Shown here: positions 4,301 through 38,137 of the stretch, in pieces
How the letters are laid out: every line of letters begins with the position of its first letter
Numbering within the stretch: the first letter of the stretch is position 1
Source: Bigelowiella natans CCMP2755
Taxonomy: Eukaryota; Protista; Cercozoa
DNA length: 40,124 nt
Assembly (NCBI GenBank): GCA_000320545.1
Contig: ADNK01001491.1
Coordinates: forward strand, 1 to 40,124
Reading direction: 5' to 3'
Notes under the pieces: generated by a model
The model's database searches: none
What the model saw: the letters and a program-made list of their open reading frames with translations, nothing else
Told to the model about the DNA's origin: nothing
Made by a program: the position numbers and the translations under genes

Positions 4301-4995
4301 CAGAGGAGCGACATAGCGATATCTGCTGATGCCGAAAGGAACTCCCCTTTTTTCTTTGCGACGCGTAAACAAAATTATGTAAAAAAATGAAGAGCTATAA
4401 GCTCTCACATAAATCCTAGGTAGAAAATCGTGTAAATCAGTATGTATTTTTGCGAAGCGGCAAGTGTAAAATTATGTCGCACATGATTCATCGCCAGTCA
4501 TTTTATTTGCCGACGGCAAAAAGAGTTATCTAGAGTCTGGGGCGCATTCAGGAGTAAGGAACGCATTCAGGAGTAAGAAACCGTTCTTGAGAACGTTGCT
4601 AAATAGCACAGTAGCCACATCGCTATATTTATCCGCGACAGCATTTTGGACTAATATTGGAGATAAACGGCTTGTGTTTTAGATGAAAACCAGCTTCGGT
4701 TTCAACAAAATGAGTATAAGTCGCAGCGAGATGTTTTCGCAAAAGTTCTTCAAAGTTCTTTCAACAACTACAGTCAGATTCCGCATTAGGCGACGCGTTG
4801 TGCCGAGGGTTTTTTGTTGCCTATCAACTACTTGTAGCCTGGTGACTTCAACATTGCCCTTTTAGGGTCAATCTGTCAACTTGCAAGGTTATGGAGGCAC
4901 CATTTGTCAACTAATGACAGCATTGACGGGTAGTAACAGGGATTGACGGGGAGTAACGGGTAAATGCCGGAAAGTAACGGGTAGTAATGGATGAA

Positions 4996-5491
4996 TATTC
5001 TAAATCAGTAGTGACAGTTATCTTGAGATTATATGTACACCTGTAAAATATCCGAAAATTAGAGGAAATGGTTGAACATTAGGGTTAGCACAAGCGCCGA
5101 TCGAAGCATCATTTGTAGGTATGTTTCCTATCCCCTAACCTAAGATCGATAATTGTATGAAAATGTGCAAGCCTATATTCTAAATCAGTGACAGTTATCT
5201 TGAGATTATGTGTACACTTGTAAAATATCCGAAAATTAGAGGAAATGGTTGAACATTAGGGTTAGCACAGGCGCCGATCGAAGCATCATTTGTAGGTATG
5301 TTCCCTATCCCCTAACCTAAGATCGATAATTGTATGAAAATGTGCAAGCCTATATTCTAAATAAGTAACAGTTATCTTGAGAGTATAAATACACCTGTAA
5401 AATATCCGAAAATTAGAGGAAATGGTTGAATATTAGGGTTAGTATTCTAAATCAGTAACAGTTATCTTGAGAGTATAAGTATAACTGTAAA
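4996..5491. repeat. Tandem repeat, ~177-180 bp unit (starts 4996, 5176, 5353 and partial 5443) carrying telomere-like motifs
   Basis: Near-identical units tattctaaatcag...gttatcttgag...aatatccgaaaattagaggaaatggttgaa..ttagggttag...cccctaacctaag. The third copy breaks right after TTAGGGTTAG. Confidence 0.92.
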
Positions 5492-5567
5492 GTCTGCGAA
5501 AATAAGATGAAATAGCAGGAAGAAAAAGAAAAGGAAGAAACCACTTTATAGATGTCCTTGCTCGTCT

Positions 5568-6280: not shown

Positions 6281-7087
6281 GGTGAGGATCACGACTGACG
6301 GCTATGTATTCCTTGTTACTATATTACTAGCTCACGCAGCTCGTTTTCCCGCCGCCGCTCCAAGGCTAGAATGCGTCAGTAGTAGCAGTAGCAGCAGCGA
6401 CAGCAGTGATTTGGATTCGACGTCCTTGTTTTGCTGATGCTCTTTGTCTGACTGTCTGTCATTACATTGAATGTGCCCCACACGCCATTTGTCACAGCGT
6501 TGTTGTTGGTGCTGCTACTGCTACTACTTGGATCCGCAGCCGCTGCATCCTCTGCCGCCGCTCCTTCGCTTTCTTCCCTGGGTGGCCCAGGGGGGGGAGA
6601 GAACCCTCTGATTTCTCCAGGATCTTGTGCGTGATTGGGAGGAGGAGGAGAGGGTCAAAAATTTCAACACAACAAACATGGTGCAATTGTCCCTCTGCGC
6701 CGCGCTTGCGCCCGCAACACGTCGCGCAATGTCGGAACAATTGACGGAAAGTGTGAACCTTTGATGAACACCATTGAACATCAAACAATTGGCACCAGTG
6801 TCAATCCCCATTGACACTGAGGATGCAGGATCATCTGCACAATTGCCGGCGCCGTCGCCGGTGTGATTCCTGCCTGGTCTCAACAATTGCGAATGCCAGA
6901 ACTCCGTCTGAAACATCACCCGATTGGGCAACACCCTCTCGACGCTGTCTTGCCTCTCCCCACCTCGCACCGACACCTCCCCAGGGTCGCTGCTTGCTCT
7001 TCGTCCTCTTCGTGTCTCTGCCTCTGCTTCCTTTCGGCCTGCCGCCGTTCAGTTCAATTGCGGAGACGTGATTGCCGTTTGCCAACT

Positions 7088-7204
7088 GCAATCCCCTCCG
7101 TTCACTTCCCTCTCCATCGGTCTCCTGGACTCAATTTGACACGGAGGCAATCCCCTCCGTTCGCTTCCCTCTGTGTCGATTGAACGGAGGCAATCCCCTC
7201 CGTT
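7088..7204. repeat. Three copies of gcaatcccctccgtt, two forming hairpins
   Basis: acggagg-caatcc-cctccgt (7141-7160) and aacggagg-caatcc-cctccgtt (7183-7204), directly abutting the left Harbinger TIR. Confidence 0.75.
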
Positions 7205-7665
7205 TGATCCCCTCCACGCAAGTGCAAACTGACCAACCAACTGACCAACCACCTTCGACGTCACCTGGTTTGATTTGTTTCACTTTCGAAGCGCCTTTTT
7301 GTGAAGACTGACCAACCAAAGTTTGAAATGTGACCAGTTTGCAACTTCAAACCGACCAGTCGGAACTGACCAGCACTGACCAGTGTTGTCGTGTTGTTGT
7401 CTGGTGCAAAATCAGAAAAAATCCAAAAACAACACGATTTTTCTCGTTGTGTCACCTCACGCACATCGTGCTGATGTCAAACCGAACAACATGCGCACGA
7501 TGTTGGTCCAAAGTGAGCCAATTTGAACGTTTCGCTTCACGTTCACACACTTGGCAAACACGTTTGAATCACGATGTGAAACAGAATGAACCGAAATCAT
7601 CGTGATGCTTTTGTCAAGTTTTCGTGAGGGGGAATTGAAACTGTGGTGTCGTTTCAGTCGTTTCA

Positions 7666-8960
7666 ATGGCGCCCTCTTTTGATGCTCTTGTCAAATTGTC
7701 GGCTGCATCCTCTTTGAAACGCTGGCAACAGCGTGCCGATGGCATGCGGAGAAAGATGGCCGCAGCCGTGGCCGTCACAACCATCGTGAGCGTGCTGACG
7801 GGAAAGAAGAGGAACAGACACAGGAAACAAATGAACTTCCTGCAGCACCTGCGTTCGTTCTCACCAAGTGCATTCAGGCGCACGTGCAGGATGCCCCTGT
7901 GCGTGTTTCACGAGGTGCTGGCAAAGGTGAAGCCAGACTTGGAGAGCAAGCACCCAAGAAAGGCCAGGCAGGATGGTGTGGTCCTGCCTGACATGGCTCT
8001 TTCAATGACACTGCGTCACTTGGCAGGGGGGTCGTGTCTTGACATCATTCGCCTGCACGGTGTCAGCAAAAGCAATGTTTTGTGCTGTGAAATCACGGGT
8101 CATTGAGGCCCTCGTGAAACACCACTTTCCTCGTGAATTCGATTTCACGAGGATGAAAGAATGCGAGTCGTCCTTTGCTCGCGTGAGCACCTGTGGCGAC
8201 GAGATGAGGGGTTGCGTGGATGCTGTGGACGGCCTGGCGGTCCACGTGAAGCAACCCTCATTGAAGGAGGATCCGTGTCAGAAGCGTTGCTTCAACAGGA
8301 AGGGCTGCTTCGCGCTGAACCTCCAGGCCGTCTGCGATGGCCGACGGGTGTTCACGCATGCAAAGGTTGCGGGCCCTGGTTCGGTCAACGACAGCCTGGC
8401 TTGGACTTTGTGCTCGCTGTCTGATGAAGTTGGTTCGGGGAAGTTGGGGGGTCACTGGTTCGCCGGAGATGCTGCCCACGGCAACAGTGACGGGCTGCTT
8501 TGCCCCCATCCCGGGAGGGAGCTGCCTCCTTCCAAGGCCAACTTCAACTGCCACTCACTTGTCCCAAAAGCGGATGAACGCAGAGTGTGCCTTCGGCATG
8601 TTGGTCGGCCGTTTTGGGGTGCTGTGGGCACCCCTGAAGTGTTCTCTCGCGGAGGCCGTGAGAACAGTGTGCGCCTGCATTGGGCCACACAACGTCACAA
8701 CTGAATTGACGCATGGCCTTCCTGTGGATGCCGACCTTCCACCCACAGTTCGCCACGTGCGCATCATGGGGAGGATGAGGCAAGGGCAGCCGCTGCCAAG
8801 ACTCAAGGTGACTTGTCGTGCTCCAAAGCTGGACAAGTCTGGCAGGCCATCGAGCCTGCTCAACTCGATCAACTCGAGTGGGGGCCGAACGCAGAGGTCG
8901 TGACGATGACTGTGCAAAGCGGGACCGCCTCACTCGCAAGCTTCAGACTGCCATCGACAA
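7666..8960 (+). pseudogene. Harbinger/HARBI1-type DDE transposase (DDE_Tnp_4-like), two frameshifts, Tyr-less
   Basis: Motifs FRRTCRM, LRHLAGGSCLDI, GCVDAVDG, FNRKGCFALNLQAVCD, GPGSVNDS, GDAAH, FNCH/LSQKRMNAECAFGMLVGRFGVLW, HN. Frameshifts near 8070 and 8555. The D, D and E catalytic residues are retained. Confidence 0.9.
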
Positions 8961-10048
8961 CATGCAGGTCTTGTGTTTGTCGTTTCATGAATGCGCTGTC
9001 AGGTGTCACTTGCAATGAGAAGAAGAGAAAATGGGTCGGCCGCAGAGGCAGCAGGTGGGAGAGAGGAAAGGTTTTGATGACGATGGATGTCAATGGCACT
9101 TGGCACCAGTGCTAGCACTGAAACCACATGACCACTGGCAGTGTGATGGTGACACATCAACCCCCCCTTTGTTAGCAGTGCCCTTGTCATTCTCGCCATT
9201 GCTTTTTGTTTCTGTTCAGTTGTGATGTGCACACATGTGTGCATGCACACATGCACATGTGCACAACAAACTCATCATTTGCAATTTCCATTCTTGCAAT
9301 TTGGAAGATGCAACTTGTCAAAACTTGACAAAAGGTTTCAAAAGAAAAATTCATTGCATTTTCATTGTGCAGTGCAATGCTGTGTCATTTCATTGAAAAT
9401 GATGTAGTTGCCTAGCTGCTCTTTGTTGACATCTGCGAGTTTTCACACACACAGCAATGGCACACGCATTGCATGTCTGTCATTTTCCCCCCAATGTTGT
9501 TTGAGTTGCAACTGTTCCAGGTGAGGCCTCGCCCCCATCCCCGTGAGTGAAACAGCAGTGTGCTGATGAATGGACAGGTGGTGCATTTTCCATTTTCCCA
9601 TTTGCATTGCATTGCATGATCATTTCAATTTCAAACAACACGTGATGTGTTTTTTGCGAGCAACCTCATTTGGCAGTCTTCCATTTGAAACCTCTGCTTC
9701 CAATGATCTCAAAAAAAAACTGAAAGATTGGAATTGGAAGAACTTCGCAAGAACAACAATGCAGTGGTGTGTGTGTTTGCGTCCCTCTGTTGTGGTGGGG
9801 GACATGTGTCTACGTCCCTCCTCCAGGGATGTGATTTCATTGCCTCAAGAATGTCTTGTTTCTGTTCGCTACATTTGATCCCTTTCTCGATTCCTTTCAG
9901 TGCTTCATTCTGCTCTTCACAATCATTCAAAAGATTTCCGCTGCAATTGAGAACATCACACTGCAAAAGATTTTCGCTGTGATTAAGAACATTGCACTGC
10001 GCAGTTTTGTGATGATGAATTCAATGTTCCAAATGTCAAATTAAAAAT

Positions 10049-10120
10049 CAGCGAACACTGGTTTCGATCCAGTGTCCTCCTGGTTGTGGGCCAGGCACGC
10101 TACCTCTGCGCCACTTCGCT
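10049..10120 (-). tRNA. Initiator tRNA-Met-derived gene with mutated anticodon CAC (probable pseudogene)
   Basis: Minus strand AGCGAAGTGGCGCAGAGGTAGCGTGCCTGGCCCACAACCAGGAGGACACTGGATCGAAACCAGTGTTCGCTG then ATTTTT. Full cloverleaf with A1:U72, C33 and a GATCGAAA T-loop (A54/A60), typical of eukaryotic tRNAi-Met. Pol III T-run terminator follows. Confidence 0.88.
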
Positions 10121-10172
10121 ACGTCATTGTCCTTTCATGTGCCAATTTGCAAATTGCTGATCGGACAAATCA

Positions 10173-10201
10173 AGGTCTCACCCGGATTCGAACCGGGGTT
10201 G
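10173..10201 (-). pseudogene. 3' fragment of a tRNA, Gln-like
   Basis: Minus strand CAACCCCGGTTCGAATCCGGGTGAGACCT is a T-arm plus 3' acceptor strand ending in ACCT, as in eukaryotic tRNA-Gln. The 5' half is replaced by sequence related to the 101-bp repeat. Confidence 0.6.
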
Positions 10202-10579
10202 CATGTACGTGCATGACACGCATCGCGCACATGCACGTGTCACGAATGGTGCGAAATGACGGTCTTGTACATGAATTAGCTACTGCAATTGAAGTAACTA
10301 GATTGAACATGAATCATTGGTGCGCAGGACTTCGAGGATTAAAACCAAATCATCCGGAAGATGATGATTTCAACAACAGAACAGATGAGCGCTTAATGAC
10401 GATGAAACATCATGATTTTTGCTTTCAGCATCTGATCAACAAACATTTCGGTGCAAACAAGATTGTCAATGTTGAGTCCTAATTCGGACTGTTGACGGTC
10501 ATTTCATGTGTTCAAAAATGAATTGCAGCACGTGCACGTGTGTGCAAGCAGGAGACAAAGTGCACAGTGCACATGCAGT

Positions 10580-10860
10580 GCACGCAATGCACTCAAGTTG
10601 CAACGCACGTGCATTGCATCTGCACAGACGTGTGCACGATGCACACGTTGCATCACGCACATGCACGCGTCACGAATGGTGCACATATGCAATGCGTTCA
10701 AGTTGCAATGTGCATTCCATCTGCACAGACGTGTGCACGATGCACACGTTGCATCACGCACATGCACGCGTCACGAATGGTGCACACGTGCAATGCGTTA
10801 AAGTTGCAATGTGCATTGCATCTGCACAGACGTGTGCACGATGCACACGTTGCATCATGC
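10580..10860. repeat. Tandem repeat, 101-bp period, ~2.8 copies (related partial copy at ~10221-10252)
   Basis: tgcacagacgtgtgcacgatgcacacgttgcatca recurs at 10621, 10722 and 10823. Confidence 0.9.
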
Positions 10861-11124
10861 ATCTTCACAGCGTACTGCTCGAGGACGAGTGGAGATTGTC
10901 TACCATTTGTCAACAACGTCCCAACGAAAAATCTTTGAGGAATTTTGTGGAGAATGTTGCTGAATAGTTCCAGTGTGCGAGTAATTGATTTTCTCCATTG
11001 CAATCATCACCACTCTACCACAGTTTGCTTGACTACTACTACTATTGCTACAATGGAAAAATCATCAAATAGTTCTGCTAATCATTTGAAATGAAGATGT
11101 TAATAATGTCTAATCATTGGAACA

Positions 11125-12696
11125 TCAGGCAGCGTCATTGTGGCAGACGTTCGCCATCTCATGCAGCTTCCTTCGCATTGCAGCGAGTTCATTCTCAAAG
11201 TATTCCTTCATGTCGGATTTCACTAGTCCCTTGTCTAGCCTTTCCTGCAGCTCGAAGAACCTGTTCTCCATCAAGGTTTTGGTGCGAATGTTCGAACACA
11301 CGAGTTTGTTGTGTTCGATTTTGTCCACGATGTTTGGACGAAAGCTTCGCGACAGCACAGACTCCAAGTCTTCCGTCGTCATGTTTCGCAACCGCTTCCT
11401 GCTGCTCTTGCTGCTTTTTGTGACGGAGCTCACAACGCTGTCCCCGTCACTTCGATTGCAGTCCCCGAGCTCGACAACAACATCGCTTATGTTCGATGGC
11501 ATGGAGCTGTCGAACAACGCGGAGGCGATGTCCCCATTGGTTTTTCTCATGCCAATGTTCAAGTAATATTGCACGTAAGACCTCCTCCTCTCCCAGTCAG
11601 CTTCCATGTCGGAGCCAGGATCCTCATCCGGAGTCTCCTTCATATGAAGCACGTACGACTGGGGAGCCTTCCCCTTCTTCCAACAATAATCGAAGAAGTC
11701 AGGATCATTGTTTCCTGACTTCTCGTAGTTGTGCAATATTCGCGTACGAGTGGCACGCATCTCGTTGCGATATCTCTGCAGCTTGGCCACTGTCTGATGT
11801 CCAGTCCACTTTGCTGGATCAAACAGAAGTACCCCATTTGCATTTTGAAGGAGTGGATCGTTAGGGGCGTAATGTTCCGGCTTGAACGACGGATTGTTGT
11901 ACAAAGCGTGGACAGAACGCCAATAGCGATCAGTGGGACTAACTCCTTCAAAATCCTCCTTGTTCATCTTCCTCTCCGAAGCAGAATACAGCTCAAGGAG
12001 GCTCCCCTCAGTCCACACGCTGTTAGGGGAATGCTCAGCCATGTCTTCTAGGACCTCATTGGACAACCGTAGATTACTTGAGCATATTATGTGGACCAAC
12101 CGTGCGCTACAGCTGTCTGACCACCTTGCAGTGGCTTCGTTCTTGCCTGCAGTCGTTTGGAGCTTCAAGTCTACATCATCACCAATGTGATCTGTTCTCC
12201 TGCTTGAATTGCTCTTCATCACTTTACCATTGACATATTTGATGGCCAAATTCAACCGATACTCCTTGCTGGTTCCTTTCGATCAATCAGGCACATTGTT
12301 TTCCTTCAGCCATTTCTTTAAGTCTATCCCACTCATCGCACGCAGTTTGCCCACTATATATTCATCTATTTCATCCGTGCCACCTTCAGAAACGTGGGAA
12401 CGCTCACTTACTGACGTCATTGAATCGTCAATGGATCCAAAGGTTGGTGTGGGACTCACAAAATTTTCAACGGAGACACCAGAGGCACACATTGATGGTT
12501 TCACAGTTTCCTTCACATCAGCGCTCGATACGTGATCCACCACATCGCGCACCTTTTCTGTGGTGATGACAGACGTGCATGGGGCTAAAGACAGGGTTTT
12601 TTTGGACTCAACGGCCAAGGTATGGCCTGCAACACCGTGCGTTGGGGGGGGGTCCAGAACCGTAACGTGAGTGGCATCCATCTTTTTATTTTCCAA
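11125..12696 (-). pseudogene. Harbinger second ORF (Myb/SANT-like DNA-binding protein) with one in-frame TGA at 12283-12285
   Basis: ORFs 12283-12696 and 11125-12255 are in the same frame. RWSDSCSARLVHII...YWRSVHALYNN...KLQRYRNEMR...NYEKSGNNDPDFFDYC resembles Harbinger-associated Myb/SANT-like proteins; C-terminal coiled coil; lies inside the TIRs. Confidence 0.65.
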
Positions 12697-13259
12697 TATT
12701 TTCGGTCAACATGATGGATTGATACCCAACAAATATCTACACACCGCAGAAATCCACTAGTCGAGATTCGAGATTGACGTCGATTGCGATGGGCATGTTT
12801 CCAATCAATGGACCGCAACAACATCGATGATATATCAACATATTTTGGTCAAAATTTGAAGTCAATTCAAATATTTTCATAACGAAATTGGTCAGATTGG
12901 TTGGTCATCAGTCAGTTTTGTATTTGCGTGGAACGAGCAAAAATCCATGAAAATCAACATCCAAAATCACCAAAAAAAAACCAACGCAGATTGGTTGGTC
13001 GGTTGGTCAGTTTGTATTTGCGTGGAACGGGTCTTATTAAATAGGCAGTAATACGTAAGTTACGTGACTTTAAGGGCGTAAGTTACCATTCCAAGGTATA
13101 TCTTAAGATATCTTAAATTGAATGGTCATGTCGCATTCTAAGAATGCTGGGGATTTTGCTGTCGAAAGAGCACACTTTTGGTGCTTTCTTCACAGAAACC
13201 TCGACCGCCACTGATCCCCCATTTAGTCACGTCGTCACTTCAAATGACGATGGGATAAG

Positions 13260-17089: not shown

Positions 17090-17800
17090 GTGGACTCGAA
17101 ATCAAATGAAAATGAATTGCAACATGATTTACCTTAGTTCCACGGATGCGAAGCATGCATGTGGACCGTGTGCATGCTGGACACGCATGCTAGCACGCCA
17201 GCGCACGCAATGTTGGTGCAATGCACGTTCTGCACACACGACGTTGCTGCATGTACGTGTCCTCTGCTAGACTGGTCTCGCAGTCTGTTTGTTCATGGGA
17301 TGCTCTCACATGCAGACATGCAATGCAACACACTGCACACCTGGCTAGCTGGACATGTTCTCTGCACACGTGACATTGCTGTCTAGCTGTGTCCATCATC
17401 GCTGCTCATGCACTTCTAGACTTGAACGCTGGCACGCAGTTACATCAGGGTGACCATTGAAAACATTCAGCAATCATGCACTTCGTTGCATGCATGAGCA
17501 CGATGCATTGCTGTGTCCATTGTTTGCACCCGCTAGCCCGTCTCACGCATGCTGCGATCATCCTCCACGACAATGCTAGAATGCTAGAATGGTCTGTTTC
17601 TAGGTTTTAGTGTTCCAAAATGCACCATCGATGAACGAATCAAATGTGTACCAGTCTTGCAAGCAGTGCAATCAACAGTGCACACAAGATCTAGCGATGC
17701 TAGGATGCGTGTTCTTCTGCACTTGCTGTCCAGAATGTCTAGATGTGAAAGCAGCAGTGAATGCTAAACAATGCGATCGTTACTACATCTTATAACTACA
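17090..17800. other. TpA-depleted intergenic patch with CTAG survivors
   Basis: TG/CA-rich; roughly a dozen CTAG make up most of the remaining TA. Confidence 0.8.
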
Positions 17801-18148
17801 CGCACAACAGCACGTGGTACGTTATCAGCGAGCTGAGGATCGCCTTCGAGCTCAATGTGCTACACGCCATGTCTCAAACAAAAGAACACAACGTCGGTCC
17901 GATATTTTGCCTCAAATCGTCTTGCTAGCTAGACAACTGGTAACCACCGAGTGATCATATCATTTTCTGTGTTACTGTGGAGCTTTCCCATTATTTAATT
18001 GCGATTCACAACATCATTCGCAGGACATGCTTAGCTGCGACAAACACGAGTTTTCCTCATTTTTGGGTGGTGCATATTAACACCGTTGGGTTTGGTTTTT
18101 TGGATTGATTCGTGGAAAAGCTTTCGTCGGAAATAGAGACGATTCAGC

Positions 18149-18514
18149 TTAAGCCTTGGAGCTGGTGTACTTGGTGACAGCCTTGGTTCCCTCGGAAACA
18201 GCGTGCTTAGCAAGCTCTCCAGGAAGGATGAGGCGGACAGCGGTCTGGATTTCCCTGGAAGAGAGGGTAGCCTTGTTGTTGAATCGGCAAAGCTTTCCAG
18301 CTTCGGAAGCGATGCGCTCGAAGATGTCTCCGATGAAGGAGTTCATGATCGACATACCGCGGCGGGAGATACCGGTATCAGGGTGGACCTGCTTGAGGAC
18401 CTTGTAGATGTAGGTGGAGTAGGATTCAACACGCTTCTTTCTGCGCTTTCCTTCTGCCTTTTTCTTTTCAGGCTTCTTAGCTGGGGTCTTGGTGGCTTTA
18501 GACTTGGCTGGCAT
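18149..18514 (-). CDS. H2B: Histone H2B
   Basis: Intronless 121 aa: [25 protein letters not shown]...[32 protein letters not shown]. Confidence 0.99.
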
Positions 18515-18803
18515 GGTGACTGTTTGAGTTGTGGGGTTTGGTGTGATGGGAGATGTTGCTATTTCCTCACGCTACACCTCGCGAAATCCGTCTTTCCAAC
18601 TTAAACCTATCCAAATTTACATGCGCTTCTAACTAAATTGTTTATAATTTACAACTGCGACAATAAAAATAGATCAACATTTCTGAATATTTTGCGATAT
18701 ATTTTATTTTTGAGTAGGCTTGTCACGGCCGTTAATTTGAAATCGAGTAAAATTCAGCCGATATTTTATGTATATTAATAAATCGGCTTTTAATGATAAT
18801 TAG

Positions 18804-24224: not shown

Positions 24225-24550
24225 TGTTGCGCGTAAGGTGTTCACAGGCCGAGGCGCTACGTGCACAAGTAGGCAGGGGGGGGGAAAGGCACGTTTGCTT
24301 CCTTTTGAAGAGTTGTGTTTATTTTTATTAAAGATTATATTTTTATTAAATCGTGCACTGCGTAATCATTCGCGAAGCTTTCGCGAATGCCGCCGCACGT
24401 GGGGCAGCACACTTCCGGTGTGCTGCCATGAGTCCCGCCGGAACCCACGTGCCTATGCTGTATTAATATCTACGTTATCTATATTCTATATCCGCGACAA
24501 CCCCTTTGTTGTCGCACGTGACTTGTGCCCGCGTAGTGGTACGCGCTACA
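24225..24550 (-). repeat. 3' LTR
   Basis: Direct repeat of 29615-29940; terminal inverted repeat tgttgcgcgta / tacgcgctaca (10 of 11 match). Confidence 0.97.
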
Positions 24551-24558
24551 CCTCCCCC
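24551..24558 (-). promoter_or_regulatory. Polypurine tract
   Basis: Minus-strand GGGGGAGG immediately before the 3' LTR; further (GGAA)n purines upstream. Confidence 0.8.
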
Positions 24559-24601
24559 AAGTCACGTTGCTCCTTCCTTCCTTCCTTATTCCCTTAGACC
24601 T

Positions 24602-27600
24602 TCATCGCTTTCGGAACTTCACCAACCACCAGGTAATAGATTCCTCTCTAACCTTATCTCCTTTGTCGCTTACCCAGAACTCACCTTCGTCCTTAGGTTC
24701 GTGTCCATACCAGCCCTCTGCATCAAGGTCCCCCAGGACCTTATACCAGTGCTCAAAGGGTAAGTCGGGAACAGCTAGGTAGAGTAGCTGATATTTTCCG
24801 TCCTTTATTTTCATAGCTACCCTCTCCATATTTCGTAATCCAGGGTAGCCTAGATAGACAATCTTCATGCGCCAATCGTCGTTCACCCTGACCTTATTGT
24901 TTCCATATTCCACATCGAACTTAGGTCGGGGTCCTAAACAAGGCATTGCTCGCTCCCACACAGTAGGGTTTACTTTAACATCCTCTAGGAGCTTCTCACC
25001 GATATCATAATTCTTTAGGTGACTGATGTGGCGCAAGGTGACCCTGTTCCCATCATAGATGTAGTACTGCTTCCTCCCCTTCCTCTCGGTAACCTTTGCA
25101 ACGCCACCCCAGAAGGGGTCTTGTTTATTTCTCGATCTCAGATTTACCTTGGCCCTAACATACTGTCCTTCCTTTAGAACTCGGCCATCGTACGGGACCT
25201 TCTCGTCTTCGCTCTCGGTATCGTCGTCGTTGTCGTCGCCTTCTTCCCTCTCCTTATCCTTGATACCTCCCCCAGACGTGAAGGTGTCGTTTACTAACCC
25301 TTGTATCTTGTCTGGTGTGGTGCTATTTATCCTGCTTAGGTTGGCCAAGGTGCGGTGGAGTCGCTCTACCTTGGAGTTGGACTGGGCATAGTATACAGGT
25401 GAGGCATCAATATTAGGGTGTGGTAGCTGTAGAAGAGAGGTCTCATTATCCACATGTAACTTCTTTGGTATCTTGTTTATGCTAACTTCATCAGGGATAG
25501 CCTGGAGCTCAGACTCCCAGGTACGGTAGCAGTTAGTAAGCCTCTGCTTATATAAGCCTTTGTTCTTCTTAGCAACGTTGACCTTGATAATCTTTTTAAC
25601 CCAGCACTTTCCAGTGGCCACATCAACGAAGGTAAGGTAGTGATAGCCATCGTACTTATAAACATCAATTTGCACGATATCTAAGAAGTTCCTTGCTTTG
25701 ATTTTCTTAGATGCACGGCTCTTGCTGGACTCCTTGGTGGCGACGCCTGCCGCCTTCAAGCTGGAGCACCTGCAGCCACGCAGGTATGTCCTTATCTCTT
25801 TTAGCTTGTAGGGCCAGTAGTAATGGTAGAGTAGAGCAGTGATATGGTTTTCTCCTACGTGTGCAGGTCCATGGGCGGTAAAGAGAAGGGCTCCCCTGGT
25901 CCGCCGTGGCACGTAGGTACGCCTAACATTATTAGTGTATACATATATCCTATCACTAAGTACCTCATGCTTGTGTTTGTATTTATCCAGGTGTTCTTGA
26001 AGGTGCTGGAGCTCCTCTGGCTCAGGCAGGAAGTCGCCGTCCTCGAAGGTAATCGCGTTAACCATAGGGGTGACCTGGGTAGGGACTTTCTTTTCGAACA
26101 GCCTGCTGAAATAGTCAGCAAGCTGCTTGTCTCCTGGTGCGTAGACCACTGTCCTCTTGTCCCTAAACTCTTCCGTGTCCGCCCTCATAGCTGCATACTC
26201 ATCGTTAGGCGCTTCGAGCTTGCGGTCGATGCCTAGGAGGGGCTTGTGGTCAGTCATTAAGGTGAAGCTGGGCACCGACAGCAGGTAGTGTCTTAGTTTC
26301 CTCTGCGCCTCAGTCATGGCTTTATACTCTCCTTTTGTAGGGCTGTACTTGGCCTCAGCTGCTGTGCAGGCCCTGCCCCACACCCGTATGATCTGCTGGT
26401 CTTGGGTAAGTACAGCAGCCATACCTAGCTTAGACCAGTCTGTCCATAGGGTAGCTGGTCTAGTAGTGTCTAGCTTAGCATTCAATAGGGTGTTGCTGCA
26501 TAACTTTATTAGGTTATCGAAGTGGGCATCAAGGCCAGCCTTGGCCCACACCTTAGCGAAGCTGAGGCCTACAGAGTTCTCCTTCCGGTAAGCAGTAGTA
26601 AAAGCAGCTGCAGTCCTAGCGTAGGTAGGGGAGAACCTACGTAGTATCCAAGCTGCAGTCTGCAAGAATGACTTTAACTCCTTTGCATTCTTAGGTTTAG
26701 GGGCTTGCTGTAGTGCTGCTACTTTCTCGGGGTTTGGGGTGATGCGGCCTTGCTCCAGGTAATATCCACACCACTTGATTCTTGTAGCTAGGAATGTACA
26801 CTTCTGCAGTCTAATAGTAAAACCGAAGTGTGCAAACCTAATAAATATATTTTCCAGGAGGAAGATCTGAGCGACGACTGTGTTGGTACATATTATGTCA
26901 TCATCCACATACACAAACACAAACACCCACAACACAGACGCCATCCCATCATGTGTGTATGCCCTGTAGTTCTGACTACTGAACGCATCCCCTGATATGC
27001 TTAGGCCGTAAGGGAATACGACGAAGTGCCACTTCCTGTGCCTGCTGGAGAACGCGGTAATGGGGCGGGAGGTTTTGTGGATGGGTGTCTGCATGTATGA
27101 TTCATTTTTATCTAGGGAAGAGTAGTATTTGTATCCTATGACGTGTTCAATAACGTCATCTATCCTTGGTGTAGGTGTCTGGATCCTCTTTATTACTCGG
27201 TTGTGGCGGATGAAGTTGTGCGCCAGGCGGAAGAAAGGGTAAGTAGGTTTCTTAGCTAGCACATGTCTCACGTTCCATGGTGAGTTGCTTGGCTCTATCT
27301 TCCCTTCCTTTGCCCATTCATTGATCTGCCACTCTATCTTTTCCCAGTCCGCTTCCGGTCGCCTATGTTCTGGGTCATTGATGATGCACTCTTCGTATCC
27401 CTTCTTTAGCTCGATCTTTACTGGGGTAAGCTTGCTGGAGGGCTTCGTCGTCGGCTTGGTGATGTCAGAGTACTTCTCGTTTAATATTTTATTAATGTAC
27501 TTTTTGCCTTTGTCGATATCCCAATCATCAGCTGGGGGGGTCTTGTCCAGTAGCTCCGTTATCTGTCGGATGGTCTTGCCGGGGTTCTTCTTCCGTAGCT

Positions 27601-29575
27601 CGGTAGGTGTAGGTAGCTTGTTGTCCGCTAGGTCCATAAACTCTAACGCATTAACGCTTGACTCAGAGGTCCACTCGTCAAGCCGTATCATGTTCTGGCT
27701 GATGGTCCTGCCTGACTTCTTTGGCAACTTAGCAAAGTATATCTTGTGATTGTAGAATGATATGATCCCCCCTAATTTTTCTAGGGCATCCTGTCCGAGG
27801 AGTAGTTCCATGGATAAAGTCATGGCTACTCGGGTCTTGATTTGGGTCTCCGCGTCGCTGCCAGGTATCTGTAGCTTTAGCATTAGCTCACCGACGGTCT
27901 TCATGGAAGAGCTTCCGTCTGCTTGAGCATATTTACGTTCTTTCTTAGTCACTTGATCCAATAGTCCTAACCTTCTTACTGTGCTTAGGCTTATGAAGGA
28001 CTTCGGCATGCTGCCACTATCCCAAAGGGCAGGTAGTTTCTTGTAGTCTCCGTAGCTGTCTTTAACTTTAACCTTGGTCATAGCAACTTTGATAGTCCTG
28101 TTAGCGTCTTCGTCATTAATGTTGCATACTCCTAAGTTCTTTATGTCGTCTAGGGTCATGGGCTTGTCTTGGTCCTGCGTTGCTGGTACTGCTGTCTTCG
28201 TCGGCGCCTGCTTAAGGTGATCTAATATTCCGTTTATCTGCTGCTGTATAGCATTGATACTGTTCTGCTTTTTGTTCTTATATTTATTGTTCTTCCCGTT
28301 GTTGCTGCCTTGCCATTTGCTGTTGTTATATCCTTGTCCTCTGCCTTTCTTTCTCTTTAACTTCTCGTAGTGTTCGTTGAGCTGCCTGATCGTCATCCTG
28401 GGTCGTCCTTCTTTCCTGTCTCTGCAGTCTTTAGCGGTGTGTTTCCCTTTACGTGAGCAGTATCCGCAACGTCGGTTACCTTCCCTGTCCTTGTACCAGT
28501 CTCGCTGCGGCTTAATAGCGTTAATGTTTCCTATGCCAGGTACCTTAGGGCTGGTAAACTTGCGGTCCTGCTCCTGCTCGCGTAGGGATATAGCCTGCAC
28601 TGCTGCCTCCATCGTGGTGTAGCCTTTCTCCGTAACGTAAGTGGATTCCTTTATCTTTAACTTGAACTCTTCAAACCTTGCCTGATCATCACCTGTGTTG
28701 TAATTAAAATCATGTAGTTCGTCGATCATATCCTGGAAGCGCGTGGCAAAGTCTCTAACAGGTTCTCTCTCATGCTGCATCATTGCTCTGTATTTTCTAA
28801 TAGCCTGGGGTAGGGAGTTAGCATCCTGTTCATTTACAAAAGCCTTCATTATCGCCTCAACGTCTCGTAGCCCACTAACTGTAGTGTGTATTTTCTCTAG
28901 CTGCCTGATCCGGGTCCTGCCTGTCTCGTAAAGGTCCATGGCTTGCTTTATTATAGCTAGCCATTTGAGCTTGTCGTTTTCGGTGGGGTTAGGGGTAAAG
29001 TCGCAGAGTATACTCCTAGCGTTCTTCCACCACCTCCTTGCCTCACCTCTTTTCCCGTTGTATTTCGTTATCATAACCGGTGCTGTTTTAACAGACATGA
29101 ACTGGGTGTTCCGCTGTACCGGCTGCTGCTGCTTGACGGTGCTCTGGGTCGTCCCCCGCGAGGCGCCCAGACCCCCGTCGTTCCTAAACAAAGCTGCCCA
29201 CTCTGGAGGTAAGTCTGCTTCGTAATCCATGATGTCCTGCATGATAGCTGCCCAAACATCATGTGTCTGATACTTGTATTCTATCGATACTTTCAGTTTG
29301 GCGTAGTTGCTCGCCCTGGGTCGCAAGGCTCGTAATGCCATTACGACCTTCTTGCTTTCGGCGGCCACGTCCTCGTCGTCCGCCTCGTAGAAGTTCTCCA
29401 GTGCCTCTGCTGCTGCATCTGCTTTCTTAATCCCGGGTGCTGGTCCCGGCGGTGCCTGTGGAGGTGTTCCTCCTCCTTCCTTAGCGTCCGTATCGCCCTT
29501 CCTTTCCTGTTTCTGCTCGTGCCCTTGCACGGCCTGCGAGCCAAAGTCCTGCTGTTCTTCTAGCTGCTGTGACAT
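24602..29575 (-). CDS. Gag-Pol polyprotein, 1657 aa, with C-terminal Dam-like extension
   Basis: Zn knuckle CGYCSRKGKHTAKDC; protease LWDSGS; RT SSLD...PYGL...YVDD; RNase H TDWS...E...TDHKPL...ADYFSR; integrase H-x3-H...CRC, QID...VDNE...SNSKVER; GPY/F-like module; ~134-aa extra domain. Confidence 0.97.
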   Translation of the reverse strand: MSQQLEEQQDFGSQAVQGHEQKQERKGDTDAKEGGGTPPQAPPGPAPGIKKADAAAEALENFYEADDEDVAAESKKVVMALRALRPRASNYAKLKVSIEYKYQTHDVWAAIMQDIMDYEADLPPEWAALFRNDGGLGASRGTTQSTVKQQQPVQRNTQFMSVKTAPVMITKYNGKRGEARRWWKNARSILCDFTPNPTENDKLKWLAIIKQAMDLYETGRTRIRQLEKIHTTVSGLRDVEAIMKAFVNEQDANSLPQAIRKYRAMMQHEREPVRDFATRFQDMIDELHDFNYNTGDDQARFEEFKLKIKESTYVTEKGYTTMEAAVQAISLREQEQDRKFTSPKVPGIGNINAIKPQRDWYKDREGNRRCGYCSRKGKHTAKDCRDRKEGRPRMTIRQLNEHYEKLKRKKGRGQGYNNSKWQGSNNGKNNKYKNKKQNSINAIQQQINGILDHLKQAPTKTAVPATQDQDKPMTLDDIKNLGVCNINDEDANRTIKVAMTKVKVKDSYGDYKKLPALWDSGSMPKSFISLSTVRRLGLLDQVTKKERKYAQADGSSSMKTVGELMLKLQIPGSDAETQIKTRVAMTLSMELLLGQDALEKLGGIISFYNHKIYFAKLPKKSGRTISQNMIRLDEWTSESSVNALEFMDLADNKLPTPTELRKKNPGKTIRQITELLDKTPPADDWDIDKGKKYINKILNEKYSDITKPTTKPSSKLTPVKIELKKGYEECIINDPEHRRPEADWEKIEWQINEWAKEGKIEPSNSPWNVRHVLAKKPTYPFFRLAHNFIRHNRVIKRIQTPTPRIDDVIEHVIGYKYYSSLDKNESYMQTPIHKTSRPITAFSSRHRKWHFVVFPYGLSISGDAFSSQNYRAYTHDGMASVLWVFVFVYVDDDIICTNTVVAQIFLLENIFIRFAHFGFTIRLQKCTFLATRIKWCGYYLEQGRITPNPEKVAALQQAPKPKNAKELKSFLQTAAWILRRFSPTYARTAAAFTTAYRKENSVGLSFAKVWAKAGLDAHFDNLIKLCSNTLLNAKLDTTRPATLWTDWSKLGMAAVLTQDQQIIRVWGRACTAAEAKYSPTKGEYKAMTEAQRKLRHYLLSVPSFTLMTDHKPLLGIDRKLEAPNDEYAAMRADTEEFRDKRTVVYAPGDKQLADYFSRLFEKKVPTQVTPMVNAITFEDGDFLPEPEELQHLQEHLDKYKHKHEVLSDRIYVYTNNVRRTYVPRRTRGALLFTAHGPAHVGENHITALLYHYYWPYKLKEIRTYLRGCRCSSLKAAGVATKESSKSRASKKIKARNFLDIVQIDVYKYDGYHYLTFVDVATGKCWVKKIIKVNVAKKNKGLYKQRLTNCYRTWESELQAIPDEVSINKIPKKLHVDNETSLLQLPHPNIDASPVYYAQSNSKVERLHRTLANLSRINSTTPDKIQGLVNDTFTSGGGIKDKEREEGDDNDDDTESEDEKVPYDGRVLKEGQYVRAKVNLRSRNKQDPFWGGVAKVTERKGRKQYYIYDGNRVTLRHISHLKNYDIGEKLLEDVKVNPTVWERAMPCLGPRPKFDVEYGNNKVRVNDDWRMKIVYLGYPGLRNMERVAMKIKDGKYQLLYLAVPDLPFEHWYKVLGDLDAEGWYGHEPKDEGEFWVSDKGDKVREESITWWLVKFRKR

Positions 29576-29591
29576 TGTTAGTCAAATCGTT

Positions 29592-29609
29592 TCCCGTGTG
29601 TGGAAGCCA
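29592..29609 (-). promoter_or_regulatory. Primer-binding site
   Basis: Minus-strand TGGCTTCCACACACGGGA, starting 5 nt after the 5' LTR. The primer tRNA was not identified (loosely Glu/Asp-like). Confidence 0.65.
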
Positions 29610-29614
29610 AAGGT

Positions 29615-29940
29615 TGTTGCGCGTAAGGTGTTCACAGGCCGAGGCGCTACGTGCACAAGTAGGCAGGGGGGGGGAAAGGCACGTTTGCTTCCTTTTGAAG
29701 AGTTGTGTTTATTTTTATTAAAGATTATATTTTTATTAAATCGTGCACTGCGTAATCATTCGCGAAGCTTTCGCGAATGCCGCCGCACGTGGGGCAGCAC
29801 ACTTCCGGTGTGCTGCCATGAGTCCCGCCGGAACCCACGTGCCTATGCTGTATTAATATCTACGTTATCTATATTCTATATCCGCGACAACCCCTTTGTT
29901 GTCGCACGTGACTTGTGCCCGCGTAGTGGTACGCGCTACA
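29615..29940 (-). repeat. 5' LTR
   Basis: Matches 24225-24550; followed on the minus strand by the PBS and the gag ATG. Confidence 0.97.
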
Positions 29941-29944
29941 CCCT

Positions 29945-30850
29945 TGGGCCCTTAGGCAGTGACTGTTAGCAGCAGTGGTGACAGTCTAGCAGTGTGGTAG
30001 CAGTGGCAGCGATGACTGCACATCCACCTACCGGTGTTTGAGCTGAACTGACGAAAGGCTAATCACTCTCGGCTTGCTAGCTTGGGATTGAACCTCTGAG
30101 AGATCAATCACACGATCACACTTGTTGTTCCAGTGCCATGTTGGAATCCCAATTACCAGACTGAGACACCCAATCATTGCATGCGTGTGCTTATCCAACC
30201 TCAATGTGATGCAAAAAAGAACAAGAAAGCACACAACAAGTCAGACTTGCGTCTTCCTGCGACATGGCACATCATTCACGTGCGTTTGTGGCTCACGTTG
30301 AACTCGCTAACTCGTCTAGACGTCTAGACGTCTAGATCTAGAGAATGAGATGTGTGGACGTGTGGACCACATGATACAAGAATGGAGATGATTTATTTGC
30401 TCCTGCGCTACAATGATGTTGCATGCTGCTTTTGTCAACTCCATTCTGCCAGTCTAGCATTCTGTGAACGTGCATCAAAAATTCAAAATTGCTTTCAAGT
30501 TCAACACACAGACACCAAATGTGTGCAAATGTGTCACACAATGTGCTCACTGCCCTGGCATTTCGAGATTATTCTTGCGTCGATCAAATCTAGAAGTGAA
30601 CAAGTGATTTCCCCACATGCACGCATGCTCTGTCATTGCATCATGCTGGCATCATGCCATGACACTGCGTTGTGATGAGTTAACGTGGTAGCAGATTAAC
30701 ATCAGTGGGCTTCCTGTTATTGTGTCTAGCAATGCTGACTTTAATGCGTCTACCTGCAACTCTGAACCCATTCATGCATTGAACCGCAAATTCAGCTGCC
30801 TGCAACATAGGAGAGTACGCTTTAGGTGTCAAAACGAAATGTGCACATTC
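29945..30850. other. TpA-depleted patch flanking the LTR element
   Basis: TG/CA-rich, survivors mostly TAG/CTAG (gtctagacgtctagacgtctagatctag at ~30314-30341). Confidence 0.75.
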
Positions 30851-33197: not shown

Positions 33198-34533
33198 ATG
33201 GGCGACGATGGGAACAAGACTGCAAAATGGCGGGACACAAACATGGCGCTCTTCGGCAGTGATTTGGAAAAAAAAATCAAAGCTGCAGCTGCCATGGATG
33301 AACCTGCATGGAAGCAGGCTGGACAAAAAGTTGGCCTGCAGATCTGGCGGATCGAAAAGTTTCACGTCGTTGAGTGGCCATCTCAAAAGAAGGGACAATT
33401 CCACGTTGGCGATTCCTATATCATGCTCAACACGTACAAGAAAAAGTCTCGAAAGAATTCCGGAAATGAAGCTCTAGCATGGGTCTGCCGAGTCAGTGTT
33501 TGTGCAAATGGGGATGAGAAGGGTAGGGGTTCGATGAATCCTTGTGAGTATACGTGAGAGAGTTTTGCTCAAACTACAAAATCGTTATCACTCACACAAA
33601 ACCAAATGTGTCACATGTAAGGATGTCCATTTCTGGATCGGGTCTCAGTCAACGGCAGACGAATATGGCACCGCAGCTTACAAGACAGTCGAGCTTGACC
33701 ACCTGCTGAGCGACAAAGCTCACCAGCATCGAGAAACGGAGGGCCGGGAATCAAAGCTATTTCGCTCTTACTTTACAGGCCACAACCGACTTCGCTATCT
33801 TTCTGGGGGGATCGAGACCGGTTTCAACCACGTAGAGGAGAAAAAGGTGAAACCAAGGTTGTATAGAATTAAGGGACTGCGCGGGCACATCTCACTTAAG
33901 GAGGTCCCAATGACCAAGTCCTCCTTGAACGACGGCGACGTGTTCATTCTTGACAAAGGCGATTCCATCGTTCAATGGAATGGTTGTAAATCAAACACCT
34001 CGGAAAAACGTCAGGGAGGGGAATTCATCCGAGACGTCAAAGACTCACGTGGTGGTAAACCCATGATCGCCATAATTGATCAAACAGCCCCAGGGCAAGA
34101 GTCTAATGAGGCAGAGTTCTGGGACATGCTAGGAAATAAGGGGAAGATTCAAAGTGCTCGTCGGGGAGGCAATGATGCGGATGAACATGATTTCACGCCT
34201 CAGCTATGGAGGATACGCGAAGTCGGTGGTGGGAAGATCACATGGCAGAAGATGGCAGAACAAAAGAAAATCGAACGAGCTCGTTTTGCTTCTCAGGATG
34301 TTTTCATACTCGATGTTGGATTTCATGCATTCGTGTGGGTGGGGATGAAATCCTCCGCAACAGAGAAGGCCTCTGGAATGCGTTATGCAGATCACTATCT
34401 AGAAAAAAATGGACGTCCTCCAACTATTCCGATATCAAGGATACGTGAGGGAAGCAAAAGGAAGAACCACGACTTTGAGAAATACCTTAACGATGATCCA
34501 ATTCCTACTGCTTGTGCGTGCATAATTTTGTGA
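33198..34533 (+). CDS. Gelsolin/severin/fragmin-like actin-binding protein (3 repeats, ~398 aa); exons 33198-33482, 33622-34533
   Basis: GLQIWRIEKF...GQFHVGDSYI, DVHFWIGSQSTADEYGTAAYKTVELD, QHRE, GGIETGFNHV, SLNDGDVFILD, QDVFILD...VWVG. Ends in CACIIL*. Confidence 0.95.
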
Positions 34534-35973: not shown

Positions 35974-36453
35974 AGTTCATTGATTTTTGCTCAGAAGCGT
36001 TGACTTACCTGGGACCAATTCGAATCCCTAGTGTTTGGCAGCTTTGGTGTTCTAATTGTACACAGCTGTTTGCCGCGCACGCCGTACGCAAGAATCGAAA
36101 GCAATGTTGCTGATGGCGAGGACGGGGTGGCACCTCGGGCCTCTTCCAGATATGTGTAAATTTATTGGCGCAAGGGGAAAATATATATACCGAAAACATC
36201 CAAATCTGTTTGCAAGTATCTTTCCGAACGAAAGGGAGTTTTGCCTTCTATATCGCACCTGGGAAGAGATTTCGCGAAACAAATATGCCCTGAAAACTTC
36301 TAAGTAGAGTATCAATATCGAGCGAACTTTTGTGAGTCGAACCCCAGGCCATTTCCACCTATTTGTAAGGGGGAAATCGATTTTTGTCGCATTTTCCCCC
36401 GGACCATCGGATCGTGGTGCTCACCACAAATTCCATCGACGACCGCTCCTTCG

Positions 36454-37202
36454 ATGCCTAGCAACAATGGAAACCTCAAGCACTCGTCTGATGAATACAA
36501 GGACCAATTCGAGGCGTCTTATGACGTCGCAGCTCGGAATGTGGAACTGAGGCGGCCATTGTTTGTGGCAAGGATCCTGCAGAAGCGTCTAGGCTACACG
36601 GCGCAGGAGCTCGATGTCATTGGCCAGGACGTTCGGACGATGCAAGGGACCGGAAATCCGCACAAGCTTGCAAAGATTAAAGCCGGGGGTACGCACACTT
36701 AATGACGAAGAACGATGAGATGTTTGCTTTGTAGCTGTTGTTGTTGCTGCTGCTGCTGTTGGTACTGCTGCTGTTGGTACATGATCGATCGAGCATTCCA
36801 CTGCGGCGAGGCTATCTCCCTCAACTGCCCACGACGACTGAATTTCATTGCGTTAGAAACCGTACTGGATCTTGGGAGCGGGCTCGGCGCAGACGCATTT
36901 CTTGCTGCGCACAGCGTCGGGCAGGACGGGAGAGTCTTCGGACTAGACCTGTCTCAGGAGCACGTATCACAGGCACAACACCGTGCGGAAGAGCGCGGCG
37001 TGGGCAATATTGTGCGATTTGTGCGCGGCGACATGGAACATATCCCTCTTCCTGACTCGTCCGTGGACTGTGTCATCTCCAACGGCGGGTTCTGCCTGGT
37101 TCCCAACAAGCCGCTTGCATTCCAGGTTGGTTGGCACACCATCATCTAACTATCCATCAGATGAATCATAAGAGGGAAAGGAGAGATGGGAAGAGAGAGA
37201 GG

Positions 37203-37250
<48 letters not shown>

Positions 37251-38137
37251 CCAAAATCACGCTCTGACCTACAAATGAATTCCAAAAGGAGGTCTCACGA
37301 GTACTGAAACCGGGGGGACGAATGTCGATCGCGTGCACGACTCTGCGTCAGCCATTGCCGTCACCCGATACGCACGGCCCATGGCCGGCGTGTATGGAGG
37401 TGTTTCTCCCCCTCCCCTCCGTGAATGCAGTAGTGCAGGCAGCTGGCTTCAGCTCGGCGTTGGTTGACCTTTCGGATGCATCGATGGACAAATGGGACAT
37501 GTCAGATGACGAGCTTGTAACGGAGATCGCTCGGGATGACTCCGGCGAGGAATTCGCGTGCTCGCATGCCAGGAAAGCTGCAGAGCGTAGGGCAAGGGCA
37601 AAGTTAGATGCCGCTGTCGCTGCCCGGGAGGAGGCGGAGGCTAGACTACTGGCCGCGCAAGGGGAAGGTCTGCAGCCCGCTGATGCCGCAGAGAGGCAAG
37701 AAAACCTCGGACTCATACACTGGGGAGATCCTGAATACCAGCATCTGGAGCAATACGACATGAATTCGCTATGTGCTCGTGTTGTTATCTATGCGGAGAA
37801 GCAGCAGCAGCACCAGCAGCAGCAACAAACACCTCAGACGACGTCGAACCTGTCCTCGCCGTCCCTGCAGCCTTCCTTCAAATCCGCCTCAGCCTCCGCA
37901 GCTGTGGACGAATCAAGCTCATTTTCATATCTTCAAGATAACCTTGCGACCTGTGGTAGTAGCAGTCGCCGCGACCAAGGCACAAACTCACATCTCCTCG
38001 GGTTCGGCGCAGCTTTCTGCTGCGCCGCAGCTGCAGCATCGATTTCAAGCAGGAGAAGAAGACTTCGCGCTGCTGCATCGAGCAAGGTATACGGTCGCTT
38101 TGTCACGGCGTTCTCTCGCCTCTTCCGGAAATTGTAG
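36454..38137 (+). CDS. ArsM/AS3MT-like class I SAM-dependent methyltransferase; exons 36454-36688, 36857-37125, 37289-38137
   Basis: QGTGNPHKLAKIKAGETVLDLGSGLGADAFLAA...VFGLD...GDMEHIPLPDSSVDCVISN...LVPNK..AFQEVSRVLKPGGR...WPAC. Confidence 0.85.

Follow-up and report, generated by a model that had tools for sequence, protein, structure and literature searches.

The analysed window, that is, the whole stretch of 40,124 nucleotides that makes up positions 1 to 40,124 of contig ADNK01001491.1 of Bigelowiella natans CCMP2755 (assembly GCA_000320545.1), contains a broken Harbinger-like transposon whose transposase region has, with a probability that we estimate at about 0.6, been rewritten from TA to TG and CA by a host hypermutation that acts on TpA in both strands, probably by means of a DNA adenine deaminase. 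The most prominent feature of this region is a tract of 2,586 bp from which TpA is completely absent, a result with a Poisson probability of about 2e-57; elsewhere in the window the second longest TpA gap spans 398 bp, and the gaps of the other dinucleotides are all 295 bp or less. The process itself is not new, since a TpA-specific hypermutation of T/A to C/G in B. natans was first described in 2026 by Mettrop et al. (bioRxiv 10.64898/2026.01.13.699255), and the locus is most likely one more of its products. What the locus adds is an erased domain that is offset from the element, the likely conversion of bystander sequences and a possible bias in sequence context. The coordinates of all these features are collected in Table 1.

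Table 1. Features of the Harbinger-like element and of the TpA-depleted zone in the window.
Feature	Positions	Strand	Remarks
Left shoulder	6331-6526		7 of the 8 TpA that survive lie in CTA/TAG; edge chosen post hoc
Tract with no TpA (saturated TA->CA/TG domain)	6527-9112		0 TpA vs 130.6 expected
TpA-free DNA outside the left terminal repeat	6527-7205		possibly a host gene fragment or another repeat
Left terminal inverted repeat	7206-7251	+	28/33 first columns match the right end
Seven subterminal GACCA motifs	7231-7382	+	
Harbinger-like DDE transposase pseudogene	7666-8964	+	Pfam DDE_Tnp_4, E 5e-11; 64% identity with P0002
Right shoulder, partial TpA loss	9113-11124		rho 0.10, 0.32, 0.09 and 0.60 in successive segments
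20 in-register CA/TG units	9226-9265		11 CA and 9 TG, with nine switches; TA and CG absent
tRNA gene called Val(CAC)	10049-10120	-	A1:U72, C3:G70, G31:C39, A54, A60
101-bp tandem repeat, CA/TG-rich	10584-10861		about 2.5 copies
Second ORF (ORF2)	11125-12705	-	first ATG 12681; a single in-frame TGA (12283-12285)
Five subterminal TGGTC motifs and terminal inverted repeat of the right end, then TTA	12846-13033	-	

The transposase gene is preserved in four frame pieces (7666-8079, 8081-8554, 8559-8897 and 8899-8964), with frameshifts near 8080, 8555 and 8897. A preliminary description of this DNA had placed a Harbinger transposase at 7666-8960; the family assignment stood, the middle piece giving the expected alignment with Pfam DDE_Tnp_4 (42.9 bits, against a cut-off of 24.8), whereas the single open reading frame had to be replaced by the four pieces. 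Together these comprise 431 codons, with 20 Cys, 17 His and not a single Tyr, in agreement with the absence of this residue that had been noticed in roughly 430 codons. The DDE triad had also been described as intact, and the three acidic residues, which we take to be the catalytic ones, are indeed present at 8228 (D, in 147 of 148 homologues), 8468 (D, in 142 of 147) and 8583 (E, in 112 of 123). Nevertheless, the gene is dead because of the frameshifts and of ordinary substitutions, such as Gly to Asp at 8219 and Arg to Gln at 7828. A protein predicted from this pseudogene, P0001, is present in public collections.

The second ORF is arranged tail-to-tail with the transposase; it encodes 15 Tyr, and its TpA rho of 0.44 resembles that of host exons. 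It is weakly similar to ORFs in the same position in the metagenome loci L003 (pairwise E 6e-5) and L067 (E 5e-5), and ORF2-like ORFs in the same orientation were found beside related transposases in four of 76 metagenome loci, i.e., L003, L031, L067 and L068, the last three of which are probably one element. A homologue search with ORF2 recovered, out of 1,466 candidates, a single protein, that of the window itself, and no relevant Pfam match was obtained; the Atlas rows Myb_DNA-bind_4, MADF and NAM-associated score only 0.79-0.81, and the lead towards oomycete hypothetical and Myb/MADF clusters stays below 0.9. The terminal inverted repeats, of which the left one starts at 7206 and the right one ends at 13033, align with a local score of 94, against a maximum of 57 in 100 shuffles. 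The element is flanked by TTA on the right and by TTT on the left, where its end is degraded and adjoins a short tandem motif; three copies of a 31-bp motif at 7082-7214 adjoin, and may overlap, the left terminal repeat. The element is thus a broken two-gene Harbinger-like transposon. PIF/Harbinger elements have terminal inverted repeats, a DDE_Tnp_4 transposase and a second ORF of opposite orientation (PMC9179366), and these are found here as well, with terminal inverted repeats of approx. 33-45 bp. The differences are that both ORFs are broken, that no exact 3-bp target duplication is recognisable, that the Myb/SANT domain of ORF2 amounts to a lead, and that the 2-kb spacer contains tRNA sequences. 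The element at 939-3432 of L003, an intact metagenome two-ORF Harbinger-like element with the same tail-to-tail arrangement and an ordinary TpA content (rho 0.61 and 0.50), is a useful unmutated model.

Within the transposase the rho of TpA is 0 and that of CA+TG is 1.49, and the absence of Tyr follows from the location of the gene in a tract without TpA. The core of this tract has no TpA left as a mutation target. Its beginning lies approx. 680 bp to the left of the left terminal repeat, and 6527-7212 contains no TpA where 32 are expected; 6527-7205 gave no match in Pfam or in the Atlas, and likewise neither collection matched a possible ORF at 6527-7048 (minus). To the right, the segment 9113-10047 shows a rho of 0.10 for TpA and of 1.91 for CA+TG; further on, the TpA rho is 0.44-0.45 in ORF2, 0.36 at the right end and 0.70 beyond the element, and host exons range from 0.50 to 0.67. 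Since the erased zone begins beyond the left repeat and wanes ahead of the spared ORF2, it is offset from the element.

Other repeats and genes of the window were also inspected. An LTR retrotransposon at 24225-29940 is intact, with 329-bp LTRs that are 100% identical (TG...CA) and a 4-bp CCCT target duplication; its ORF of 1,659 amino acids (24602-29581, minus) has Pfam matches to protease, reverse transcriptase, RNase H and integrase-zinc domains in the Ty3/Gypsy order. This retrotransposon, located 11 kb from the erased zone, keeps its TpA and is a young insertion that has not yet been mutated. The retention of TpA in ORF2 and in the LTR retrotransposon (rho 0.44 and 1.13, respectively) indicates that the process spares some mobile DNA. 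A 177-bp tandem repeat at 4995-5513 (2.5 copies and a fragment) with TTAGGG motifs is TpA-rich and unmutated at approx. 1 kb from the tract. Among the host genes, gelsolin (33538-34533, plus) was identified by its Pfam match, and its exon is 100% identical to P0164, a B. natans gene model whose label carries the JGI prefix of the species; by eye, we take others to be histone H2B (18149-18571, minus), a SAM-dependent methyltransferase-like gene (approx. 36300-38137, plus) and the end of a thiolase-like gene (approx. 1580-1963, plus).

Homologues of the transposase were collected by an exhaustive protein search, in which 1,432 proteins passed E <= 0.001; removal of the window's own protein from the 150 best left 149 homologues. 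A word-index search with the core transposase piece matched 0 of 429 candidates. The nearest relatives among these best 149 of the 1,432, P0002 (64%) and P0003 (56%), are full DDE_Tnp_4 proteins from metagenomes. In the same best 149 of 1,432, Tyr has a median share of 3.35% and a minimum of 1.6%; at these two shares, a transposase without Tyr would have a probability of 4e-7 and 8e-4, respectively. In the 12 alignment columns in which at least 25% of the 149 homologues have Tyr, the pseudogene has Cys (5), His (4), Phe (2) or Arg (1); P0002 has 12 Tyr, of which 11 align to Cys or His.

Six codons had been singled out as former Tyr codons, and all of them read as described (CAC at 8017, TGT at 8035, TGC at 8306, CAC at 8477, CAT at 8507 and TGC at 8549); their weight as evidence is, however, unequal. 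The changes GDxAY to GDAAH at 8477, where 132 of 147 homologues have Tyr, and GSY to GSC at 8035, where 62 of 106 do, are strong cases. A moderate weight corresponds to LRYLA to LRHLA at 8017 (W 29, F 25 and Y 21 of 107; the nearest relative, P0002, has Tyr) and to FNY to FNC at 8549 (F 83 and Y 46 of 139; Cys is close to 0%). The proposed change of PY to PH at 8507 is weak (Y 47, W 45, F 38 and H 6 of 146, and P0002 also has His), and that of RKGY to RKGC at 8306 was not borne out, for the consensus is RKGF (F 100, C 12 and Y 11 of 149) and Phe is also the residue of P0002 and P0003. Since homologues carry Phe, Cys or His at these last two positions, the former was downgraded and the latter rejected as evidence. 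Additional Tyr-rich columns are located at 7885 (Tyr in 50 of 81), 8081 (81 of 114), 8288 (106 of 149), 8453 (69 of 147) and 8552, and several of them are stronger evidence than the cited ones. A case that does not involve Tyr is the Pro at 8685, where 80 of 97 homologues have Leu. Overall, Tyr is what intact close homologues have where the pseudogene has Cys or His, apart from the His at 8507 and the Phe at 8306.

The direction of the mutation was evaluated by scoring every single-base back-change in the transposase against the homologue profile. Of 105 back-changes that restore TpA, 18 improved by more than 2 log-odds, versus 9 of 264 for the same transitions elsewhere (odds ratio 5.9, Fisher p 2e-5). 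With a profile HMM, a gain above 1 bit was seen for 17 of 115 TpA-restoring back-changes and a gain above 2 bits for 11 of them; the corresponding figures for control transitions in other contexts were 11 and 0 of 294. When all the TpA-restoring gains of more than 1 bit were applied, the summed HMM score rose from 307.3 to 353.0, whereas six control classes handled identically reached 308.6-317.2. Blind replacement of all Cys and His by Tyr was unusable as a test; the score fell from 307.3 to 294.4, a loss of 13 bits, and in the homologues the mean drop was 35, with a rise in 0 of 149. The preliminary description had read the changes as TAY to CAY or TGY, and this direction was upheld by the Cys or His found in 9 of the 12 Tyr-rich columns and by the enrichment for gains among TpA-restoring changes. 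The presence of both Cys (TGY) and His (CAY) products indicates that both strands were hit. From relatives that are at most 64% identical and from witnesses internal to the window, the polarity can be deduced, and we hold with great confidence that mutation was directed at TpA and ran from TA to CA or TG.

The internal witnesses include non-coding sequences. The run of 20 CA/TG units is unique in the window; 2000 simulations of the zone never exceeded a run of 13, and the (TA)n runs that are intact in the window comprise 12-22 units. It is likely that this run is a converted (TA)20 microsatellite, and the lack of CG among its 20 units is expected if a single hit per site removes the target. 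In initiator tRNAs A73 is canonical. The anticodon and the last base of the tRNA gene called as Val(CAC) are those expected if CAT and a terminal A had undergone TA to CA and TA to TG, which suggests a conversion. All the residues listed for this gene in Table 1 are signatures of initiator tRNAs (PMC3950347); it also has T29:A41 and a mismatch at 7:66. The gene is thus likely, although not certainly, an initiator tRNA that changed at TpA in its anticodon and last base. The left terminal repeat of the element carries TG where two right-end copies carry TA. A second tRNA-like 3' half (T-arm and acceptor end) was seen by eye at 10170-10205 (minus), truncated by the 101-bp repeat motif, of which a copy lies at 10220-10252.

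Another aspect of the erased zone is the context of the sites that survive. At both edges of the zone, 15 of 18 surviving TpA are in a CTA/TAG context, against a share of 0.416 in the window (p 4e-4), in counts for which the edges were picked after looking and some of the sites are tandem. Three other intergenic zones (1950-2750, 17100-17950 and 29970-30760) are TpA-poor and CA/TG-rich, with rho values of 0.33-0.43, and are possibly old repeats or the result of a second mutation process. In these zones CTAG reaches 2.9 times its expectation, the nine other classes of TA 4-mers range from 0.15 to 0.48, and CC and CCG are depleted. The excess of CTAG, with CC and CCG depleted, is more than simple sparing could produce; sparing was therefore rejected as a sufficient explanation, and the context bias is best regarded as a lead.

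In mutation-accumulation lines of B. natans, 231 of 302 nuclear mutations fell in two integrated viral regions, where the A/T to G/C changes were all on TpA; the de novo change of TpA to CpA/TpG was estimated at approx. 6e-7 per site per generation, and the main hypermutable region is single-copy (bioRxiv 10.64898/2026.01.13.699255). The same work identified 324 TpA-poor genes, enriched in domains of reverse transcriptase and of DDE-superfamily endonuclease, as well as 124 TpA-poor clusters, and put forward an ADAT2 candidate. The novelty that had been implied for the process is therefore lost, since it was already measured directly in this species. The species, the change of TpA to CpA/TpG, the involvement of both strands and the foreign or mobile nature of the DNA are common to the preprint and the present locus; nevertheless, live mutation was limited there to two viral regions that still hold TpA, whereas here the substrate is a DNA transposon at full saturation. 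As far as the main text of the preprint is available, it contains no mention of Harbinger, tyrosine, CTAG or spread; the locus may be among its TpA-poor genes. On a 1-kb grid, the two windows with zero TpA have CpA+TpG values of 1.44 and 1.46, below the cut-off of 1.52 given in the preprint, and the locus may thus escape its cluster rule. In open-access PMC and bioRxiv, the preprint was the one paper found on TpA hypermutation, and none was found for diatoms.

According to the mechanism that we favour, a silenced or RNA-marked domain would recruit the enzyme, and deamination would turn the A of TpA into inosine, which would be read as G during replication. Editing of the coding strand would convert TAY to TGY (Cys), and editing of the other strand would convert TAY to CAY (His); every edit would destroy its own target, so that the zone would saturate at zero TpA, and the domain would spread past the left end and fade before ORF2. 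This chemistry, its targeting and the spreading are what we infer from the pattern, the polarity, the involvement of both strands and the extent of the changes observed at the locus. Deamination of A seems to us the probable chemistry, at somewhat better than even odds; the spreading of the erasure into non-element DNA is put forward tentatively, with the odds leaning against it. A little more doubtful still is the wider proposal that the mutator marks a spreading domain nucleated on the transposase gene, and not a whole element or a paired repeat, that this domain saturates, that it would extend approx. 0.7-0.9 kb into single-copy host DNA with (TA)n and an initiator tRNA (CAT to CAC) as bystanders, and that it disfavours CTA/TAG. 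If true, this last preference would be a fingerprint of the enzyme. A natural conversion of A to I in DNA, which likewise gives A:T to G:C, is carried out by BjADAT2 of amphioxus; this enzyme prefers GAA, TCG and hairpin loops, and not TpA, and the available part of its description shows no targeting of transposons (PMC10354150).

Modification of A and modification of T would lead to the same sequence outcome, and the two are indistinguishable by sequence. Oxidised thymine mispairs with G, and the same mutation could arise if the thymine of TpA were oxidised as a silencing mark (5-hydroxymethyluracil or 5-formyluracil, by a TET/JBP enzyme) and then read as C; given that T to C at TpA equals A to G at TpA on the other strand, all the counts fit this chemistry equally well. 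Enzymes of the TET/JBP type make 5hmU and silence transposons in dinoflagellates, but T to C hypermutation is not shown in the available part of that work (PMC11572971), and a literature search aimed at dinoflagellates found no report of 5hmU in chlorarachniophytes; we consider this chemistry unlikely. As for the targeting, the saturation and the sharp left edge could also result from a mutator that acts on paired homologous copies along their shared stretch, as in RIP but with the direction reversed; 6527-9112 would then be the multi-copy part, and the tract could correspond to a partial repeat of higher abundance. In Neurospora and other fungi, RIP introduces dinucleotide-specific transitions into both strands until transposons are saturated and inactivated, and it leaks into flanks; it changes C to T and creates TpA, whereas here TpA is removed to zero, so that the polarity is the reverse. 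RIP also needs duplicated DNA, and in the window two identical 329-bp LTRs, perhaps too young to reveal a dependence on duplication, and the 177-bp tandem array both keep TpA; likewise, the erased zone extends approx. 680 bp outside the left repeat and spares ORF2, and the main hypermutable region of the preprint is single-copy (bioRxiv 10.64898/2026.01.13.699255). A mutator guided by pairing is, in our opinion, improbable.

Known spectra of polymerase errors are broader than one transition in one dinucleotide. A localised error-prone repair or translesion polymerase that misinserts opposite A or T in a TA context in heterochromatin could produce clustered, line-specific bursts as those in the preprint (bioRxiv 10.64898/2026.01.13.699255); nevertheless, a near-pure single transition in a single dinucleotide, carried to full saturation, is narrower than such spectra, and we give this possibility even less credit than pairing. 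It could also be argued that no directed mutation took place, and that the tract reflects codon bias, a high GC content, avoidance of TA by the element itself or an artefact of assembly, given that coding DNA is generally low in TpA, as seen in the host exons, and that His at 8507 and Cys at 8306 are found in intact homologues. However, even at a baseline rho of 0.43 the tract would have a probability of about 4e-25, non-coding DNA was hit equally, the Tyr kept in 132 of 147 homologues was lost here, and none of the 76 related loci or of the 149 proteins is alike; this last reading is largely refuted and is the least probable of all. Host hypermutation at TpA, probably by adenine deamination, stands as the preferred explanation.

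Further cases were searched for in metagenomes. A first scan for related loci gave 0 of 117 stretches and a second one 76 of 352; these 76 loci are too distant for alignment at the DNA level (three short blastn matches), and their TpA rho ranges from 0.33 to 0.98, with a median of 0.60. No second case appeared among the 149 proteins, none of which is Tyr-less, or among the 76 loci, none of which is TpA-free; both sets favour intact genes, so this is a weak sign that no other case exists. The screen for Tyr-less proteins, which had been suggested as a way to find the process in other genomes, is weaker than a count of TpA in the DNA (P 4e-7 versus approx. 1e-57); the DNA count is the more sensitive detector, and the protein view is useful for polarity.

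Regions of this kind are also a pitfall for annotation, since they yield false gene models that are Tyr-less and poor in stops, such as P0001, as well as miscalled tRNAs. For the biology of B. natans, the locus is a saturated and polarised example of this hypermutation on a DNA transposon, for which the available part of the preprint offered domain enrichment only. It provides testable edges, bystanders and a context bias that can be compared with the list of mutations in the preprint and used to screen candidate enzymes.
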